This document shows positions 7,683 through 16,572 of a DNA stretch of 64,000 bases, piece by piece. The position numbers and the translations under genes are program-made. Within the stretch, counting starts at the first letter, position 1. Every line of letters begins with the position of its first letter. The stretch lies in NCBI GenBank assembly GCA_963717465.1, contig OY970340.1:2432001-2496000 (forward strand). The letters run 5' to 3'. The stretch is from Candidatus Bathyarchaeota archaeon. Lineage in GTDB: Archaea; Thermoproteota; Bathyarchaeia; Bathyarchaeales; Bathycorpusculaceae. The notes under the pieces are model-generated. The model worked only from the letters and a program-made list of their open reading frames with translations, was not told where the DNA came from and searched no databases.

Positions 7683-7933
7683 CAAAGTTAATTTTTTATC
7701 CTTTGCTCATACAAGGCTAAACAAATTATTGGGCTTTTAAACGATTCAAAATCAAGAATAATCGCACCTTTGATTTAGTCATATTACCTTATGTTCCGTT
7801 GCAGATGTCTTATCTGTCGTTCATTCGGCCTTTTCTATCGTTCAGCATTTTACATTACTATTTGGGATGTTAAAAGTTTTTATTACTGCTTGCTCTGTTT
7901 CATTATGCTCCCTTAAAAAACATGTATCTCGAC

Positions 7934-8012
7934 GGGGCCGTCGTCTAGCTTGGATTAGGATACACGCCTGGGGCGCGTGCGATCCTGGGTTCGAATCCCA
8001 GCGGCCCCACCA
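7934..8012 (+). tRNA. tRNA-Pro(GGG), CCA encoded
   Basis: GGGGCCG acceptor stem, CACGC-CTGGGGC-GCGTG anticodon arm, GGTTCGAATCC T-arm, CGGCCCCACCA end. Confidence 0.97.
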
Positions 8013-8205
8013 CATTTCTCTAGGATAAAATCAGTTTTAATGCGTCAAAAAAGTTATCTCTAAAACAGGTATAATCCCACAACTACTCGCCGAGTTTTCA
8101 AAGACAAAATATCCGACATCAGACATAATTGCATTAAAGGAAAATTAATCTCATATTGCAGTAGGTGCTCTAAATGAGCAGCAGCATATTGCTGAGTTTG
8201 AAACA

Positions 8206-8676
8206 ATGGCAACCGCCAATCGTGTATCATTGATTGTTCCTAAGACTGAAAACTTGAATGTTGATAGTATTGGAGCTGGCGCAGGAGTTCATAGTCGACT
8301 ATTTGAACTTGGGCATAAAGCAAATTCAATCCTGGTCAGCATGGCCCCAACTAATGAGATGGATCGTTATCTTAATCAGAAATCGCAACGTTGGTGGCAT
8401 ATAAGAACTCTCTTTGAGCAAGATTTAATCAGCATCCCAAACAACCCAAAATTAATCAGTCAATTATCCCAAATGCGATACGAGTTTACAACAACAGGCA
8501 AAATTAAAATTGTAGACCCTGAAGGCAAAAGCCCCGACTACGCGGACAGTTTAATGTTAACTCTGATTGGTATGGTTAGGCCGTCTCAAGGCTCAGGCGT
8601 AGTATTTAGCATTTCCAAAGATGCATTAACAAATAGAAAAAAAGTTTTGGATATCCATGAAAATGAGAAAGATTAG
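8206..8676 (+). pseudogene. Viral terminase large-subunit C-terminal (nuclease) fragment
   Basis: VDSIGAGAGVHSRL and KSPDYADSLML motifs; ATPase domain absent; lies directly after the tRNA. Confidence 0.75.
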
Positions 8677-9510: not shown

Positions 9511-9937
9511 AAGGCAATCATTCGAAGAATTTGGGTATAAAACTAACACAAATCAAATAAGCATGATTGAACTATAAGAAATATAACAAAGCAAGAAAAA
9601 GGAGTAAAGAAAGTTGAGTAAATCCTGTAAAGATGCAGATACTAAGAGCCGAGCAGCAGCTCAAGCGGGTTGGAAAGCTGATAAAGCTCAAATAAAGAGA
9701 TTAAAAGAAACTAGTTCAGATTAATCCTATTTTTTAGTCCGAAAGTTTGTAAATGAATCTTTGGATTAAAGTTTAATTATCCGCAGCTGGGGGACTCGCC
9801 CGAAACCCGCTACTCCACCAAGTAATTTACAAGTGACCATTTAAAGAGTAATATTTTGGCCGGCTTGTAAGAGAATCGGGTCAATTTGGTCGCATGAAAA
9901 GAATGCTTTCACTTGAGGAGGTTAGAATGGCCCCGCC

Positions 9938-9948
9938 CGGCCCCACCA
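9938..9948 (+). repeat. tRNA-Pro 3' end copy 1 (CGGCCCCACCA)
   Basis: 11/11 match to the tRNA end, in an AT-rich intergenic region. Confidence 0.55.
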
Positions 9949-10476
9949 ACTCAAACAAGAAAAACTACATTTCTTTCTCTTTATCTCACTACTAAACAGA
10001 ATTAAGGTTCAAGGTTTTTCCAAATTTGTTATGGTTTCAGGGAATTTTCCGGATTTTTTGCCATAACAACAGACTATTTTTTCACATATAAGCGTTGAAC
10101 TGTTTGGCATAGAAAAGGCATAGATGAAAACGTATAGGCTTAACTTTAATTCTGGTTAGGTTTTGATAAGTAAATCAATGCCCGTTAGGCTTAAAAGCGC
10201 AGATAAACTTGCCACTCCGTTATGTATCTAGTAATCATAGCGATGAACTGTAGCATAATTCAAACCTCTGTTCAGCGAAAGAGCGTCATGGTTTAGCGTT
10301 GTTTCAGTTCTGTTTTGTGGTATCTCTAATGCTTAGTTGTTAGCTATAACCGGCTTCGATAAAATCGGATATGCAGCTCATTTTTAATAGTGAGGTTTTG
10401 ACAATATTTAATCAAAGAATTTTGGTATTTCAAATCTGAAATAAGCGTTATATATTATGTATTCAATCTCGAGATT

Positions 10477-11082
10477 ATGGATTTCAACGTTAAAAGAATT
10501 ACTGGTTTGCTTTTCATTGTCTCTGTCGTACAGTTTATTTTTGCGACAATCATTTGCGAATCGGTTTATTCTGGCTATAGCGTGGGACAGCAGGTTGTGA
10601 GTGACTTGGGTAACTGGAACTTAGCGGGCAATTACTCCGCTATCTTCAACATATCGATTATTTTGATGGGCATACTTATCATTGTTGGTGCTTATTTCAT
10701 ACAACGAATATTTAAGAGCGCTTTCACGCCAGTTTTCATGTCTCTTGGGGTATTACTAGGCGTGGGTTATATCGGGGTAGGCGTGTTCGCAGAGAATATT
10801 TCTCGATTGCACAACATTTTTGCTCTAATTATGTTTGTATTTGGAGCGATTTTCGCTATTATGTCTTATAAATTCGTAAAATCGCCTTTTTCCCACGTAT
10901 CTATTATCTTGGGTGTAACATCGCTTTTAGCATATTTTCTTTGGATGTTAGGATTACAAATGCCTGTTTTCCATTTGGGCTTAGGCATAGGCGGCATGGA
11001 ACGTTTAATACTCTACCCCATACTCCTATGGGTATTAAGCTTCGGCGCTTACTTAATCGGAGACCAAGGCAACATAAAGTAA
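10477..11082 (+). CDS. DUF998-family membrane protein
   Basis: YSVGQQVVSDLG, GVGVF.E..LH, GGMERLILYP motifs. Confidence 0.8.
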   Translation: MDFNVKRITGLLFIVSVVQFIFATIICESVYSGYSVGQQVVSDLGNWNLAGNYSAIFNISIILMGILIIVGAYFIQRIFKSAFTPVFMSLGVLLGVGYIGVGVFAENISRLHNIFALIMFVFGAIFAIMSYKFVKSPFSHVSIILGVTSLLAYFLWMLGLQMPVFHLGLGIGGMERLILYPILLWVLSFGAYLIGDQGNIK

Positions 11083-11261: not shown

Positions 11262-12170
11262 CTAGTTAACTTCAGCAGTTGGTTGGATGCTAACTTCAGT
11301 AATTGGTTGGATGCTAACTTCAGTAATTGGTTGGATGGCGCGTATATTATTGACAGCCTTTTTAGGAATGAAACCAATCAGCCGCTTATTTTTAAACAGA
11401 TCTTCATAAGTGGATAAATAAAATAGCCCAAACGCAATTGTCAAATAGACCACTGGTAAAACTAGACCACTTTGGCTTATTGCTACAAAAAATGGATATT
11501 GAAATAGATAGATTGGGTAAGTTAATCGACTTAGTTTTCTTGTTATGGCAGGCGCCTTTTCAATTTTTAATGGCATATGAACAGTTCTAACCCCTACGAA
11601 GAAAACAAGAAGCATGACAGGTAATTCTAAGGCGCAAACGATTAAACTTGGTGATGTTGCAAATTGCATAAATTCTAAAATAAAAGCTACAGTAAAAATT
11701 GATATTGCTATCTTAAATGAAAGCTTATTGACCATGTAAATGCTGAAAAATACGTAACACAGCATTATGAATGGGACAAACCACAATGAAAACCAAGCTG
11801 TTCCTCCAGTGCTAAGGGATTGTAGTAGAAATAAACTGGAAATTTTATAGCTAGAGGTTAGTCCAGGGGTAACGCCGAACGTAAGTACAAGTGCTATCAG
11901 GTATAGCGGATACAGCCTGAAGAATCTTTTAATGACATACTTTACAGGATTAAAATTATCATTTGAAGTAGCTTTGGCCAGAAAACCAGCTGTGTAAGCG
12001 AACAAGGCTACTCCAGTTATACCAATAAGGCAAACAGGCCACTGAAAAACCGACGAAAGCGGGACAGAGAAAATAATAGAATGCTCAATAAGCACTAAGA
12101 TGACGCCTATTACCTTTAAGTAATCAACCGCGGCCGAGTCAGATTGCGTAATACTAGGTTTAGAGTCCAA
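11262..12170 (-). CDS. Acyltransferase-3 (OafA-like) membrane protein
   Basis: VDYLKVIGVILVLIEH, GVALF..AGF, KRFFRLYPLY, TYPIYLFQ motifs. Confidence 0.8.
   Translation of the reverse strand: MDSKPSITQSDSAAVDYLKVIGVILVLIEHSIIFSVPLSSVFQWPVCLIGITGVALFAYTAGFLAKATSNDNFNPVKYVIKRFFRLYPLYLIALVLTFGVTPGLTSSYKISSLFLLQSLSTGGTAWFSLWFVPFIMLCYVFFSIYMVNKLSFKIAISIFTVAFILEFMQFATSPSLIVCALELPVMLLVFFVGVRTVHMPLKIEKAPAITRKLSRLTYPIYLFQYPFFVAISQSGLVLPVVYLTIAFGLFYLSTYEDLFKNKRLIGFIPKKAVNNIRAIQPITEVSIQPITEVSIQPTAEVN
11267..11338. repeat. 3 x 24-bp coding tandem repeat
   Basis: Unit TAACTTCAG(T/C)A(A/G)TTGGTTGGATG(C/G), encoding IQPITEVS repeats. Confidence 0.9.
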
Positions 12171-12207: not shown

Positions 12208-12467
12208 ATCGATTATAGCCTTTGTGCGTATAAGCCTTTGACGCAAAATTTGCCATTATCAATTTTATGACTACCCAGCTAGTTACCCAAAATTACTCAG
12301 CTAATTACTCACAAACCGACATAGAATTATTGAATATCATCAAGACTTTGACCTTTGGAAAACATCAGCCAACTTGCCGTTTTAACCGCGATATAACTCT
12401 GTTATTTAAGGCGTAGGAAAGAAAAAAATGGATAATTTGCAGGATATCCCCCATTAGGGGATAAGAG

Positions 12468-12488
12468 CAAATCCCAGCGGCCCAACCA
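12468..12488 (+). repeat. tRNA-Pro 3' end copy 2
   Basis: CAAATCCCAGCGGCCCAACCA versus tRNA CGAATCCCAGCGGCCCCACCA (19/21). Confidence 0.9.
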
Positions 12489-12685: not shown

Positions 12686-13636
12686 GTGAGTTGGTTGAGT
12701 GATCAGAACATTCGATTGAACATTCGATTGAGGGAAACCAAGCGTTTTGATATGCAACGAAGAGTTGTAGCGCACATGGTTTCGGAATCGTGGTACACTA
12801 TTCCACATGTTTCCTATCTATACGAGCCAGATATAACAGATTTTTATGAAGAATTTAATTCGCTCGCAGAAAATGGAGCTTTTTCCGGGCGCAAAATATC
12901 ATTCAATACTCTCATTATCCGTGTAATAGTCGAAGGCCTCCAATCTGCGCCGAACCTAAACGCTCTAGTTTCATATAACCATAAAAAAGGGGAAGGCGAA
13001 TTGCGAATTTGTGAAGACATCAATGTGGCCATCGCTTGGTTGTTGCCGGACGGAAGGATGATAACACCAGTAATTCTCAACACTGAATCAATGACCTTGG
13101 TTGAACTTTCCGAGGCTATCACCACATTAAAAGAAAAAGTAAAAAATACTAACATAGATGAATTACTTTATCAAGCAGCATATGCAGATACCGTAAAGGA
13201 ACTTAAGAAACTGCATCTAAATGTGCTTAGGCGAATTATAGCTTCTAAAATTAGTTTTCACCGAGTACAAGGACTTTCTGGAAGAAAAAAAGGAAGCTAC
13301 TATAAAATTCCTCAAGGCGATCGTCTAACAGAACAGAACCTGGTCAGCGGTACAGTAACTGTATCTAACATTGGATCACTATACAAAGAGCAAAAAGGAT
13401 ATTTCGGTATCCTTGAAATTATTCCGCCGCAAATTTTCACTATAGGTTTAGGGGCCATGCAGGAAAGACCTGGTGTTTATGTTACTAAGGACGGCGAGAA
13501 AAAAATTGGCGCCCGAAAGGTTCTCCCAATGTGTTTAGTTTTTGATCATCGCGCCATAGATTTTGGCTCAATAATTCCTTTTCTAAAAAAATTAGACGAA
13601 ATTTTCCTAAAACCCGATGCACTTGCTCAATTGTGA
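12686..13636 (+). CDS. Stand-alone 2-oxoacid dehydrogenase E2-type acyltransferase catalytic domain
   Basis: IPHVSY, GTVTVSNIGS, IIPPQ, LVFDHRAID motifs; no lipoyl domain. Confidence 0.85.
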   Translation: MSWLSDQNIRLNIRLRETKRFDMQRRVVAHMVSESWYTIPHVSYLYEPDITDFYEEFNSLAENGAFSGRKISFNTLIIRVIVEGLQSAPNLNALVSYNHKKGEGELRICEDINVAIAWLLPDGRMITPVILNTESMTLVELSEAITTLKEKVKNTNIDELLYQAAYADTVKELKKLHLNVLRRIIASKISFHRVQGLSGRKKGSYYKIPQGDRLTEQNLVSGTVTVSNIGSLYKEQKGYFGILEIIPPQIFTIGLGAMQERPGVYVTKDGEKKIGARKVLPMCLVFDHRAIDFGSIIPFLKKLDEIFLKPDALAQL

Positions 13637-13707
13637 AACTTATAAACGGTTAAAGCTTTTGTGAGCGATTCAACACTCGAACTAAGATATAAAATGGAAA
13701 GCTCATG

Positions 13708-13754
13708 GATGACGCCACCAAATAGCCAATGTTCAAATTCCAGCTGGTCCGCCA
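13708..13754 (+). repeat. 23-bp arm + degenerate tRNA-Pro 3' end copy 3
   Basis: GATGACGCCACCAAATAGCCAAT-GTTCAAATTCCAGCTGGTCCGCCA. Confidence 0.75.
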
Positions 13755-13905
13755 CTACTTAATACCTATTTGCTTCTTGCGTTACCAAGAATCTAGTTAT
13801 TACCGAAGAATTCTGTGCCACATCAATAATTGACTTCGGTGTTTCATAGGATGAAGAAGACAGGATGTCTGAAAATCACGAAACGCAATCGGACGGGTTT
13901 TCTGG

Positions 13906-14598
13906 CTATCTTAACAATTTGATAATTTCTTTGGCTGGCAACACCCTAGCAAAACCTTTTCGCAAGACTCTTAGTTCAGGTTCTTGCATGTCGGGATCAT
14001 CTGTCGAGGTTACATCGCTCCCGAAGACAACTTTGAAGCTTCTTTCGTAGGCTTGACGGGCGGTCACCCCACAGCAATAATTTGTTAGAGTGCCACAGAT
14101 AATAACAGTGTCCTTTCCCATGTTCTTAAGTATCGTCTCTAATTGCGTATCGTAAAAAGCGCCATAAGAAGCCTTGTGGATTACTACCTCATCGTTCCCA
14201 GGTGATAATTCATCCCAAATATGTCCTTCTACAAAAAAGGAAGACTGATCAACATTCAATTCTAAATAGCGATTAGGCATAGCAGAGCCAGTCTTTGGGC
14301 GATCAAGATAATTGTTAGTTTTTGAAAAGACAGTAAAAATGACAGGTATCTTTCTGCCTCTGCAATGTTCTATCAGTCTCTTTATGAGGGGGACCTGCAT
14401 GCTTGCTTCAGGAACCCAGAAAGGTGTCCACCCCGGCTTAACGAACTCGTCCTGCATGTCGATGACAAGCAAAGCGCATTTCTCAGGCAAAATTTCGAAG
14501 CCAGCAACACCTTTTGCGTAGGCGCGTTTGGCGAGAGCTAGAACTTGTTCTTGGGTGTATGATTTATCACTCACAGCTTTCCCCTCGAGAAATTTCAT
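13906..14598 (-). CDS. Isochorismatase-family cysteine hydrolase
   Basis: ALLVIDMQDEF, IHKASYGAFYDT, GTLTNYCCGVTARQA motifs. Confidence 0.9.
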   Translation of the reverse strand: MKFLEGKAVSDKSYTQEQVLALAKRAYAKGVAGFEILPEKCALLVIDMQDEFVKPGWTPFWVPEASMQVPLIKRLIEHCRGRKIPVIFTVFSKTNNYLDRPKTGSAMPNRYLELNVDQSSFFVEGHIWDELSPGNDEVVIHKASYGAFYDTQLETILKNMGKDTVIICGTLTNYCCGVTARQAYERSFKVVFGSDVTSTDDPDMQEPELRVLRKGFARVLPAKEIIKLLR

Positions 14599-14669
14599 TA
14601 GTCGCGCGAAAGCTTTTAGTTTTTGCTATTCTCTTAGGGCTTTTATATTTTCTGTTAAAGATTAAAAAG

Positions 14670-14715
14670 GGTGATTTCATCAAACGTCTGATGTTCAAAT
14701 CCCAGCGGCCAACCA
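14670..14715 (+). repeat. 23-bp arm + tRNA-Pro 3' end copy 4
   Basis: GGTGATTTCATCAAACGTCTGAT-GTTCAAATCCCAGCGGCCAACCA. Confidence 0.88.
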
Positions 14716-14907
14716 CAGGCTTATTTTTCCTAAACAACTTCTTGCCAACATTATAATTAACCAGGCACAATAAAGCTTGTTTTAGAATGGCACACTGCTT
14801 GGTCAGTATTTTGGCTGGTATGGTGTAATGGTTTTTGCTGCTTTGTTTTGTCTCGCGTTTAAAAACCGCATTCCCAACTTTATTTTCCGTTACCAGGAAC
14901 TTGGGTT

Positions 14908-15447
14908 TTAGCGGATGAACATCAAACCAAAATATGTTGGTTGTTGATTATGCGTTTTCAGAACGTCTATGTCAAAACCATTCTTCCTTGCTGTAGCATA
15001 AACGTCTATGCTGGAAGATTCCATTGAAGGTCGAGCCAACCGAGGATAATTGCAATGCTCAAGATTACATTTTTCGCAACGTTCACAGGGACCAGCTGGA
15101 AGCCCAAATGCAGAATGATACCCTGCCAGAAAAATATGCCTCTCCAATTTGGCAACCAAGTTGTGCGTCGCAACCGATTCATCGGGCAGTTTCATTAAAA
15201 TAGCGTTGGAATAACTTGCCAAAACCTGCCTCATCTTTTCAGGCGTAGGACTGTAAGGCGGACAAGTCAAGGATTTTCCAAATCCTCCACAGCCATACTG
15301 GCACTTAAGTCTTACCCAATCTTTGACAACAATACTCTTAGGATCAACCATTTTAGCATCAAGTACGCCCAATCGTTTCGCAAACTTGATAAAACCTTCA
15401 ATATCTTGCTCAAAACTCCTCTTGACCGTTGCGGTTTTCTTTTGCAC
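14908..15447 (-). CDS. DUF2284 metal-binding protein
   Basis: VRLKCQYGC..G.SLTCPP, GPCERCEKC, ARPSMES..IDVY motifs. Confidence 0.85.
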   Translation of the reverse strand: MQKKTATVKRSFEQDIEGFIKFAKRLGVLDAKMVDPKSIVVKDWVRLKCQYGCGGFGKSLTCPPYSPTPEKMRQVLASYSNAILMKLPDESVATHNLVAKLERHIFLAGYHSAFGLPAGPCERCEKCNLEHCNYPRLARPSMESSSIDVYATARKNGFDIDVLKTHNQQPTYFGLMFIR

Positions 15448-15664
15448 ACTGCAGCCCCCTACAACATCTTACGATGATTAAATATATAAAATGAAAAGAA
15501 ACCTGAGAGGCTGAGTGAAAAAATGTGAAGGGTACCTATTAGCCCTGTAGGCTTCGAGTTCCAATGGGCCTGGGACTCCATAGAGCCTAACTCTCTTCAA
15601 GTTTGGGGGTGAGTCCGCCCGATTCATCTTCAAACTGTTTCAAATAGTTCCAAGTGAAAATTTT

Positions 15665-15728
15665 AAAAAAAGGGAAAAACGGGTGATGCCACCGCACATC
15701 CGAGGTACAAATCCCAGCGGCCCCCACC
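15665..15728 (+). repeat. Arm + tRNA-Pro 3' end copy 5
   Basis: A-rich lead, then GGTGATGCCACCGCACATCCGAG-GTACAAATCCCAGCGGCCCCCACC; near-identical to 16510-16572. Confidence 0.92.
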
Positions 15729-15856
15729 GTGATAAAAGCACTCGTTTCATAGCTCTTTTGTCACAATCTGCCAGTTCGAAAATAACGTTCTTTTAAAGAA
15801 CCCTTCACATAGCTTATAAGTAAGAATATTCTTACTTCATTGATTGTGGAAGCAAA

Positions 15857-16114
15857 ATGGAAGCATCAACAACAAAGGTCTCCTCCAAAGGGCAAGTAGT
15901 GATCCCTGCGAACGTGCGAAAAGCTGCTAGCTTGAAGAAAGGCGAAAAAATCCTAGCAATAGCCATAGGTGACACCATCGTCTTGAAAAAAATAGTTGAC
16001 AGATCATTTGAGGAAACGATGAAACCAATTTGGGCCAGAGTTAGGCGAATGGGTCTTATGGAGGAAGAAATAAACGCCCTTATCGACGAAGCGAAAGCCA
16101 AAGATAGTTCTTGA
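15857..16114 (+). CDS. AbrB/MazE/SpoVT-family antitoxin
   Basis: TKVSSKGQVVIPANVRK motif; overlaps the downstream PIN gene. Confidence 0.9.
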   Translation: MEASTTKVSSKGQVVIPANVRKAASLKKGEKILAIAIGDTIVLKKIVDRSFEETMKPIWARVRRMGLMEEEINALIDEAKAKDSS

Positions 16115-16511
16115 TACAAATATTTGGGTTTCAGCGCTACTGTGGGGAGGAAAGCCTGCAGAGATCGTAAAAATAGCTGAAGAAGACAAAGTCTTAATCT
16201 TCACAACTGAAGAAATAGTTGCAGAAATCAGCCAAGTTTTAGCTTATAATAAGCTTGCGAAAATCTACGAAGCCGAAGGCGTACATCGCGACCAATTAAT
16301 GGAAATGGTGCTAAAAATTGCTAAATTAGTAAAGGCAACAAAAAAAGTTACGGTTGTTCTTGCGCATCCCGCCGACGATAAAGTAATAGAATGTTCCTTG
16401 GCAGCCAAAGCAGATTACATTGTAAGTGGCGACAAGCACATTCTCGCACTGAAAAGCCACAACAGAACAAAAATATTGTCTGCTAACGAATTTCTTGAGA
16501 GCATAAAATAA
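16086..16511 (+). CDS. PIN-domain (VapC-like) toxin lacking a canonical start codon
   Basis: Frame is open from ACG at 16086: KRKPKIVLDTNIWVSALLWGGKP...HPADDKVIECS..AKADYIVSGDKH. The ORF track shows only the last 70 aa. Confidence 0.85.
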   Translation, partial: TKRKPKIVLDTNIWVSALLWGGKPAEIVKIAEEDKVLIFTTEEIVAEISQVLAYNKLAKIYEAEGVHRDQLMEMVLKIAKLVKATKKVTVVLAHPADDKVIECSLAAKADYIVSGDKHILALKSHNRTKILSANEFLESIK

Positions 16512-16572
16512 AAAAGGAAAAAACAGGTGATGCCACGGCACATCCGAGGTACAAATCCCAGCGGCCCTACCA
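16510..16572 (+). repeat. Arm + tRNA-Pro 3' end copy 6 (distal end of array)
   Basis: A-rich lead, then GGTGATGCCACGGCACATCCGAG-GTACAAATCCCAGCGGCCCTACCA. Confidence 0.92.

Follow-up and report, generated by a model that had tools for sequence, protein, structure and literature searches.

Displaced tRNA-Pro ends in a Bathyarchaeota genome carry a conserved arm that probably marks the remnants of integrase-borne elements

The window analysed here, a 64-kb stretch of DNA from a Candidatus Bathyarchaeota archaeon (contig OY970340.1), holds a tRNA-Pro(GGG) gene with five same-strand copies of its 3' end downstream. These copies, referred to below as junctions, delimit blocks of 0.84-1.27 kb that contain one or two genes each and are mutually unrelated. 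The features of the locus, with positions counted from the first letter of the window, are as follows.

7934..8012, plus strand: tRNA-Pro(GGG), the anchor (attL side), T-loop TTCGAAT (ARAGORN; Rfam RF00005)
8155..8676, plus strand: fragment of a terminase large subunit (phrog_2, E=5.8e-7)
9905..9950, plus strand: possible sixth junction, heavily eroded (fuzzy match to tRNA-Pro end-like letters)
10477..11082, plus strand: cargo, DUF998 membrane protein (PF06197)
11262..12170, minus strand: cargo, acyltransferase 3 family (PF01757)
12422..12488, plus strand: junction 1, a diverged general-type arm and tRNA-Pro 3' end (score 13; acceptor 12/13)
12686..13636, plus strand: cargo, 2-oxoacid dehydrogenase acyltransferase domain protein (PF00198)
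13690..13755, plus strand: junction 2, arm (23-nt part 13708-13730) and eroded tRNA-Pro 3' end (score 24; acceptor 8/13)
13906..14598, minus strand: cargo, isochorismatase family (PF00857)
14654..14715, plus strand: junction 3, arm (23-nt part 14670-14692) and tRNA-Pro 3' end (score 26)
14725..14764, minus strand: probable decayed last codons of an integrase, facing junction 3 (integrase 3'-end profile, 0.4 bits)
14908..15447, minus strand: cargo, DUF2284 metal-binding protein (PF10050)
15666..15729, plus strand: junction 4, A/G tract, arm (15682-15704), TACAAAT loop and tRNA-Pro 3' end (score 41)
15857..16511, plus strand: cargo, AbrB/MazE antitoxin with PIN toxin, running up to the arm of junction 5 (PF04014, PF13470)
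16510..16572, plus strand: junction 5 (distal attR), A/G tract, arm (16526-16548), TACAAAT loop and tRNA-Pro 3' end (score 36)

Between positions 7800 and 17000 the only Rfam family is the tRNA itself, and the arm profile described below has no match at 9905..9950. The terminase fragment at 8155..8676 matches, at the DNA level, a segment of a related genome (G121:C7:163333-163718) that lies within a 41-kb element bounded by tRNA-Pro and an attR; it appears to be the remnant of a tailed provirus, left in the tRNA-proximal position. Neither the array nor the rest of the window contains a whole integrase gene, and no integrase frame lies behind tRNA-Pro. A genome-wide search for integrase 3' ends returned none in the window at E<=10; the weak signal at 14725..14764 comes from targeted tests only. 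This signal was first spotted by eye and has an uncorrected empirical p of ~0.002 against genome windows and shuffles, with one of the 18 sites in that test scoring stronger. The nearest whole integrase of the family discussed below lies ~41 kb away at the 5' end of tRNA-His and is the sole whole member in this genome, which also holds several broken ones. DUF47, pepF and four other flanking genes are absent near tRNA-Pro in 37 other loci, and the outer border of the island is therefore not fixed by synteny.

The first-pass annotation had described a 23-bp arm, foreign to the tRNA, before four of the copies. Those four arms (starts 13708, 14670, 15682 and 16526) indeed align without gaps directly before GT(T/A)CAAAT, with pairwise identities of 13, 15, 14, 15, 14 and 22 of 23; the highest value belongs to the two most distal arms, which had rightly been called the most alike. 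At least 13 of 23 identities in all pairs was reached by none of 200,000 random quartets and none of 200,000 random trios drawn from the same region. The arm does not match the tRNA body either, agreeing in register with tRNA-Pro(GGG) at 7, 4, 9 and 10 of 23 positions, and likeness to the 5' side of the T-stem is confined to the final 8 nt in the distal pair of arms (5/8). The suggestion that it might match another tRNA-Pro isoacceptor failed. We also rejected other tRNAs as its source: the best candidate reaches 11/23 among the genome's ARAGORN tRNAs, a set that leaves uncovered any intron-bearing tRNAs missed by that program. The initial description needs amending in three respects, one of which concerns the order of erosion and is taken up below. 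The true arm is longer than 23 bp, with conservation starting ~17 nt upstream in an A/G tract, and the fifth copy (12422-12488) is also preceded by a diverged arm of the same family, its profile score of 13 being that of a member of the training set.

A profile of arm and core, built from 21 sites, identifies 28 sites in this genome at a score of at least 10.5, of which 11 were training members. The motif spans ~45 bp and consists of an A-tract, a 12-bp imperfect palindrome, a short spacer and the T-loop. Across 88 sites the consensus reads as an A-tract, GGG, a short A/T run, GCG, GGTGA(T/C)ATCTCC, AC, a barely conserved spacer and GGGTTCAAATCC; the distance from the end of the palindrome to the loop is 11 or 12 nt in 71 of the 74 sites where it could be measured. 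Genome-wide, duplicates of tRNA ends for Ala, Arg and Cys have the same motif upstream. The arm is thus not specific to tRNA-Pro and is common to elements for many tRNAs. Nearly always a T-loop-like core follows, which is not the behaviour of a motif that frequently occurs without tRNA ends or belongs to an unrelated repeat family.

The distribution of the motif is broad within one archaeal class. A scan of the genus, scoring at most 45 candidates per genome, gave sequence-model matches in 110 of 120 genomes, at least 1,147 at E<=0.01, the weak ones among which may include tRNA T-loops. At the level of the order, an exact form of the general motif is present in 10 of 151 genomes, which belong to three families; the reversed control gave none. 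Of the matches listed in a species collection, 76 of 80 are Bathyarchaeota or Bathyarchaeia records, and from these record titles we take the host group of the arm to be Bathyarchaeia. The Pro-type variant is rarer (six of the 120 genus genomes and four metagenome stretches). Viral contigs yielded no free attP of the Pro-type pattern and two matches to the general pattern, neither accompanied by a whole integrase in the DNA examined. A literature search of titles and abstract openings found no publication on this arm.

Similarity between arms could in principle have arisen locally, by duplication or by homologous recombination between arms, and the distal pair, at 44/47 identical over the longer stretch, is the obvious case. 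Pairs of sites elsewhere (L252/L254 and L199/L205) also switch partner inside or just past the palindrome, as recombination between arms would produce. The distal copies are, however, equally near to foreign sites (43/47 to G020 and G048; 95% over 61 nt to L365), and the genes between the copies are unrelated. Since each distal copy resembles foreign sites as closely as it resembles its partner, the pair can be explained without local duplication, which we regard as quite improbable.

The annotation had proposed that the arm be sought beside integrase genes or their fragments, and in relatives it borders both. We collected ~60 integrase loci from relatives, in most of which the gene for a tyrosine integrase of 380-450 aa lies on the strand opposite a tRNA end and stops 25-80 bp short of it. 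The clearest example is locus L107 of genome G061, where a tRNA-Leu is followed by a convergent integrase frame of 391 aa, 6 kb of further sequence, and then the arm and a perfect tRNA end; beyond this first arm come 2 kb of cargo and then a further arm. The combination of a tRNA-adjacent integrase and an arm-bearing cognate attR was also found in G085 (Cys) and in G092, G114 and G122 (Ala). In 17 of 224 sites the 260 nt that follow the core contain a 3' remnant of an integrase, compared with 2 of 217 upstream controls, and one site (L362) shows a Pro-type arm followed by an integrase tail. The linked integrases match PF00589 and phage integrase PHROGs, and an N-terminal CxxC-CxxC is present in 43 of the 61 integrase rows. 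In a quick tree these rows group by target tRNA, and the six for the 3' end of tRNA-Pro(GGG) form a clade with an SH-aLRT of 100. Of 32 spacers separating the tRNA from the integrase stop, 19 contain a half-site of the palindrome where 1.6 would be expected, a count that is optimistic because the pattern was picked after viewing those spacers.

The arm closes intact elements in relatives and has integrase remnants behind it, and is for these reasons taken to be the element-side (attP) sequence. Judged by these comparisons, the mobile elements in question form a family widespread in Bathyarchaeia, and the arm is their conserved end, left beside displaced tRNA ends. The idea that a single recombinase family built the array accordingly stands at the family level, with the arm tied in relatives to convergent Zn-ribbon tyrosine integrases, but the arm serves elements for many tRNAs and is not private to this array. 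We found no parent element ending in the exact Pro-type 23-nt arm. Two complete tRNA-Pro elements (38 and 41 kb, in G106 and G121) have a different arm, with half-sites spaced apart, and at three further loci with a Pro integrase the DNA examined contained no attR.

The association with integrases might instead reflect coding sequence. The arm could supply the start codon and the codons next to it for the intN part of an SSV-type split integrase, with the reading frame crossing the T-loop: GTG or ATG opens the arm, the frame continues through the core, and split integrases exist in the genus. Yet the frame is broken or shifted in two of the four arms, the spacer varies by single-base indels (11 or 12 nt) among family members, and split integrases form a clade of their own, at whose attR sites the arm is missing. 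The arm-linked integrases are whole and convergent, and L107 refutes the idea in practice, leaving it scarcely credible. The arm as coding sequence for an integrase C-terminus was likewise considered and rejected.

We consider it probable that the arm-plus-tRNA-end copies are the attR and internal junctions of one family of tyrosine-integrase elements, CIME-like remnants of which accreted at tRNA-Pro. The stack is bounded by att sites and shows neither a whole integrase nor transfer genes, as expected of a CIME. In the free circle, the attP would run in the order arm, T-loop, tRNA 3' end copy, 25-80 bp spacer and integrase end on the opposite strand. Crossing-over within the 7-nt T-loop would restore the tRNA and place the arm before the displaced tRNA end, and repeated integration at tRNA-Pro, followed by loss of integrase and replication genes, would leave small cargo blocks between junctions. 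In lambda-like systems, arm-type sites are bound by the N-terminal domain of the integrase. The palindrome at the core of the arm, 11-12 bp from the T-loop, would most likely be a binding site for the Zn-ribbon domain of the integrase or for a helper, and the T-tract on the opposite strand of the arm may end the integrase transcript. Besides the failure to find a parent with this exact arm, two observations count against this decay reading. No integrase remnant accompanies 207 of the 224 junctions, and the blocks are smaller and more uniform than random deletion would obviously give, 36 of 60 arm-to-arm intervals being 2 kb or shorter. In its favour, none of these 60 intervals, whose median length is 1.45 kb, contains a whole integrase.

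The crossover had been placed in the T-loop, and blocks of identity between attR and tRNA support that placement. Of 10 sites whose acceptor part is perfect, 9 have an identity that starts at positions 48-54 and takes in the entire loop; in two tRNA-Pro proviruses it begins at the first T of the loop. A different observation, that all five longer copies read CAAAT where the tRNA reads CGAAT, is correct but lends the crossover no support. In the genus, 91 sequences from 79 of the 120 genomes match the end of tRNA-Pro(GGG); 90 of them read CAAAT, and the sole CGAAT is the tRNA of the window. The copies therefore keep the letter of the genus, and the change lies in the tRNA or in whichever element rebuilt it last. 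We accordingly rejected this difference as crossover evidence and treat it as a private change in the tRNA of this genome. Within the window, one or two loop positions differ between the copies and the tRNA. Junctions 4 and 5 have the loop TACAAAT, which is also found in other genomes, indicating inheritance from an element lineage, and which may imply tolerance of a mismatch or a shifted overlap. A crossover inside the palindrome was rejected as a rule: the two flank-sharing classes have spacer identities of 0.54 and 0.47 (against 0.31 for random pairs), both intermediate, giving a mixed picture of the crossover.

The order of erosion along the array bears on how the stack grew. It had been noted that the tRNA-proximal copy is the most eroded, the reverse of simple newest-first stacking. 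This is true among the four 23-nt-arm copies, but the still more proximal copy at 12467 has an acceptor of 12/13, equal to the distal two, and the reversed order, while present in this array, is not general. Across 25 anchored loci, chosen by strong matches and viewed in windows of 20-40 kb, there is no gradient of erosion (rank correlation 0.07, p=0.6); the proximal copy was better in eight arrays and the distal copy in nine, with three ties. Cognate sites occupy the outermost position in 14 of 20 arrays and 18 of 42 internal positions, a weak trend towards fresher distal sites (Fisher p=0.06). In G085 and G114, where an integrase sits at the tRNA, the inner junctions are eroded or foreign and the outer one is cognate, a pattern that does not follow from simple newest-first stacking and that composite, neighbour-capturing units (cis-mobilisation) or insertion at the outer attR would both yield. 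The fresher distal arms of the window suggest that the outer arm was probably the last used, by a composite unit with captured neighbours or with insertions received at its outer end.

These dynamics invite a second explanation, in which the blocks are non-autonomous cassettes, excised as circles and inserted by integrases acting in trans at any arm-T-loop junction, the outer attR among them, much as in an integron. The newest block should then be distal and the outer core cognate, with inner cores possibly derived from other tRNAs. Consistent with this, the identity of the window's arms to foreign Pro-type arms increases outward (25-34, 33-35, then 30-43 of 47), and of 68 anchored sites five carry the end of another tRNA, 29 being eroded or unassigned; composite elements that switch target would also account for such foreign cores. 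Single-gene blocks with sites in one orientation occur even where no tRNA was detected (five arms in 3.4 kb at L072), and most Pro-type junctions in relatives do not adjoin tRNA-Pro in the DNA examined. Flank sharing among 230 sites is limited to the upstream side in nine pairs and to the downstream side in 22, and covers both sides in one, and G094 and G114 each hold one junction with its downstream cargo at two loci. Against such traffic, none of the 29 loci with homologues of the window's cargo (best two candidates per genome) has a flanking arm, and no block is intact at both ends in two contexts among the intervals listed. The integrase tails behind junctions suggest decayed autonomous elements, and the four sites with the 23-nt arm show no attC-like hairpin (z -1.1 to +0.6 against base shuffles), only the 12467 copy folding. 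We therefore judge the cassette explanation unlikely. Its widest form appears doubtful to a similar degree: a Bathyarchaeia-wide, integron-like capture on T-loops, with the arm as a reusable dock for visiting integrases acting in trans, one-gene circles entering the outer junction and moving between tRNA loci, a T-to-A change in the loop (junctions 4 and 5 and relatives) locking them in place, and a sister integrase clade targeting the palindrome. The more limited proposal that att-by-att recombination occurs inside arrays is plausible across the family, given the foreign tRNA ends, the reassorted flanks and a palindrome-bounded element (L085, a 4.9-kb integrase element flanked by two palindrome copies), all of them observations on the family at large.

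On the reading of decayed elements accreted at a tRNA, the arm would precisely mark hotspots of gene acquisition in an abundant class of uncultured archaea. Over a thousand arm sites in one genus, counted as sequence-model matches, would be invisible to island finders that require an integrase. More generally, our analysis outlines a compact attP (arm, T-loop and spacer) and a family of integrases directed at many different tRNAs. Together these allow a direct test of whether an archaeal integrase uses lambda-like arm sites, and they could yield integration tools for Bathyarchaeia.

Accretion of att-bounded remnants belongs to a known class of mechanism, here in an archaeal group that has been little studied. 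The consulted sections of PMC5704250 set out a path in three steps, in which an element integrates, decays to a CIME and is followed at the site by another integration. The CIMEs and tandem accretions described there around ICESt1 and ICESt3 of Streptococcus thermophilus resemble the present stack in that att sites are kept, the integrase is lost, the regenerated site is reused and tRNA ends pile up; here the host is archaeal, there are five or six junctions with blocks of ~1 kb, and one arm is common to integrases for many tRNAs. The tRNA islands catalogued by Islander share the regenerated tRNA, the displaced 3' fragment and a crossover of the T-loop/T-stem class, and the use of the tRNA 5' end by some family members is a further likeness (PMC4383910). 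As presented in the same excerpts, Islander requires an integrase for each island and its 2168 genomes include only 4 tandems with at least three members; the stack in the window, having no integrase, would escape it. Prochlorococcus tycheposon islands also combine cargo elements with tyrosine integrases at tRNAs, and are said in the portions consulted to be littered with partial tRNAs and integrase fragments (bioRxiv 10.1101/2020.12.28.424599). In tycheposons, new elements displace old ones outward, whereas here the outer junctions are the best preserved (bioRxiv 10.1101/2020.12.28.424599).

Closer to the host, cryptic integrated elements of Thaumarchaeota target tRNAs, reuse sites and have short att sequences (median 17 bp there, about 20-25 here), but the available text of PMC6563490 describes no conserved element-side arm and does not contain the string Bathyarchae. 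Tandem reuse of sites and loss of integrases in Archaea are treated in passages of PMC6563490 and PMC8371274, the latter also touching on binding at arm-type sites. Integrons and CALINs, including those of Archaea, likewise form rows of one-gene blocks with like-oriented sites, often with no nearby integrase, and carry toxin-antitoxin and small enzyme cargo (bioRxiv 10.1101/2022.02.06.479319, in the parts consulted). The present sites differ from them in being derived from tRNAs, in forming no consistent hairpin and in their link to phage-type integrases with a Zn-ribbon. Overall, the stack shows neither the attC-like hairpins nor, in the limited sampling here, the exchanged cassettes of an integron, and probably works like CIME accretion at a T-loop site.

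The arm is the conserved element-side motif that stands directly before the T-loop core and the displaced tRNA 3' end. In three relatives (L160, L161 and L038) tRNA-Pro(GGG) is directly adjoined by the same AbrB/PIN pair as in the window, without an arm. The genome that holds the window (G000) also carries a second class of tRNA duplicates, which are longer, include the anticodon loop, lack the arm and lie 0.7-2.8 kb behind other tRNAs:

G000:C1:100781, long arm-less tRNA duplicate
G000:C1:182480, long arm-less tRNA duplicate
G000:C1:406118, long arm-less tRNA duplicate
G000:C1:625433, long arm-less tRNA duplicate
G000:C1:2756231, long arm-less tRNA duplicate

Within the window, the arm of junction 1 (window:12442-12463) now folds as a strong hairpin, with z of -2.8 and -4.0, and the other four junctions differ in this respect. 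At its 3' end, the acyltransferase gene carries three tandem repeats of 24 nt (window:11267-11338), which add a repeated 8-residue tail to the protein. The window also contains one small reading frame:

window:16679-16858, 59-aa ORF

It has no match in Pfam or PHROG, and is matched at 73-80% DNA identity in several relatives and by one paralogue in G000.

This family of tyrosine-integrase elements also uses tRNA 5' ends, in reverse, and G000 has one such case at tRNA-His (G000:C1:2397194-2398691 and 2412375; L001). There the stop of a whole integrase lies just upstream of the tRNA, and 15 kb away the tail of an integrase accompanies an arm-like sequence and the His 5' end in reverse. The same layout is seen at tRNA-Pro(GGG) and tRNA-Val in relatives.

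At L085:9580-14480 a Zn-ribbon integrase is carried by an element of 4.9 kb that has a copy of the arm palindrome on either side, and in two related integrases (L079 and L084) a site resembling the palindrome precedes the stop. At five loci (L097, L102, L106, L075 and L103) the spacer that separates the integrase stop from the tRNA end contains an additional repeat of the acceptor-stem letters, which suggests a candidate second core-type binding site.

At G000:C1:226500-226843 an arm-like sequence is joined by a perfect tRNA-Arg end and the 3' part of a broken integrase, the matching tRNA-Arg being more than 1 Mb away. A pair of arm-core sites in facing orientation, with 375 bp between them, lies at L066:17513-17984, with no tRNA-Pro within the 40 kb fetched. 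Finally, L072:3024-6475 packs five arms, all in the same orientation, into 3.4 kb with no tRNA detected nearby; the small genes between them include nitroreductase- and VOC-type genes (names assigned by eye), and among the arrays seen this is the one most like an integron.
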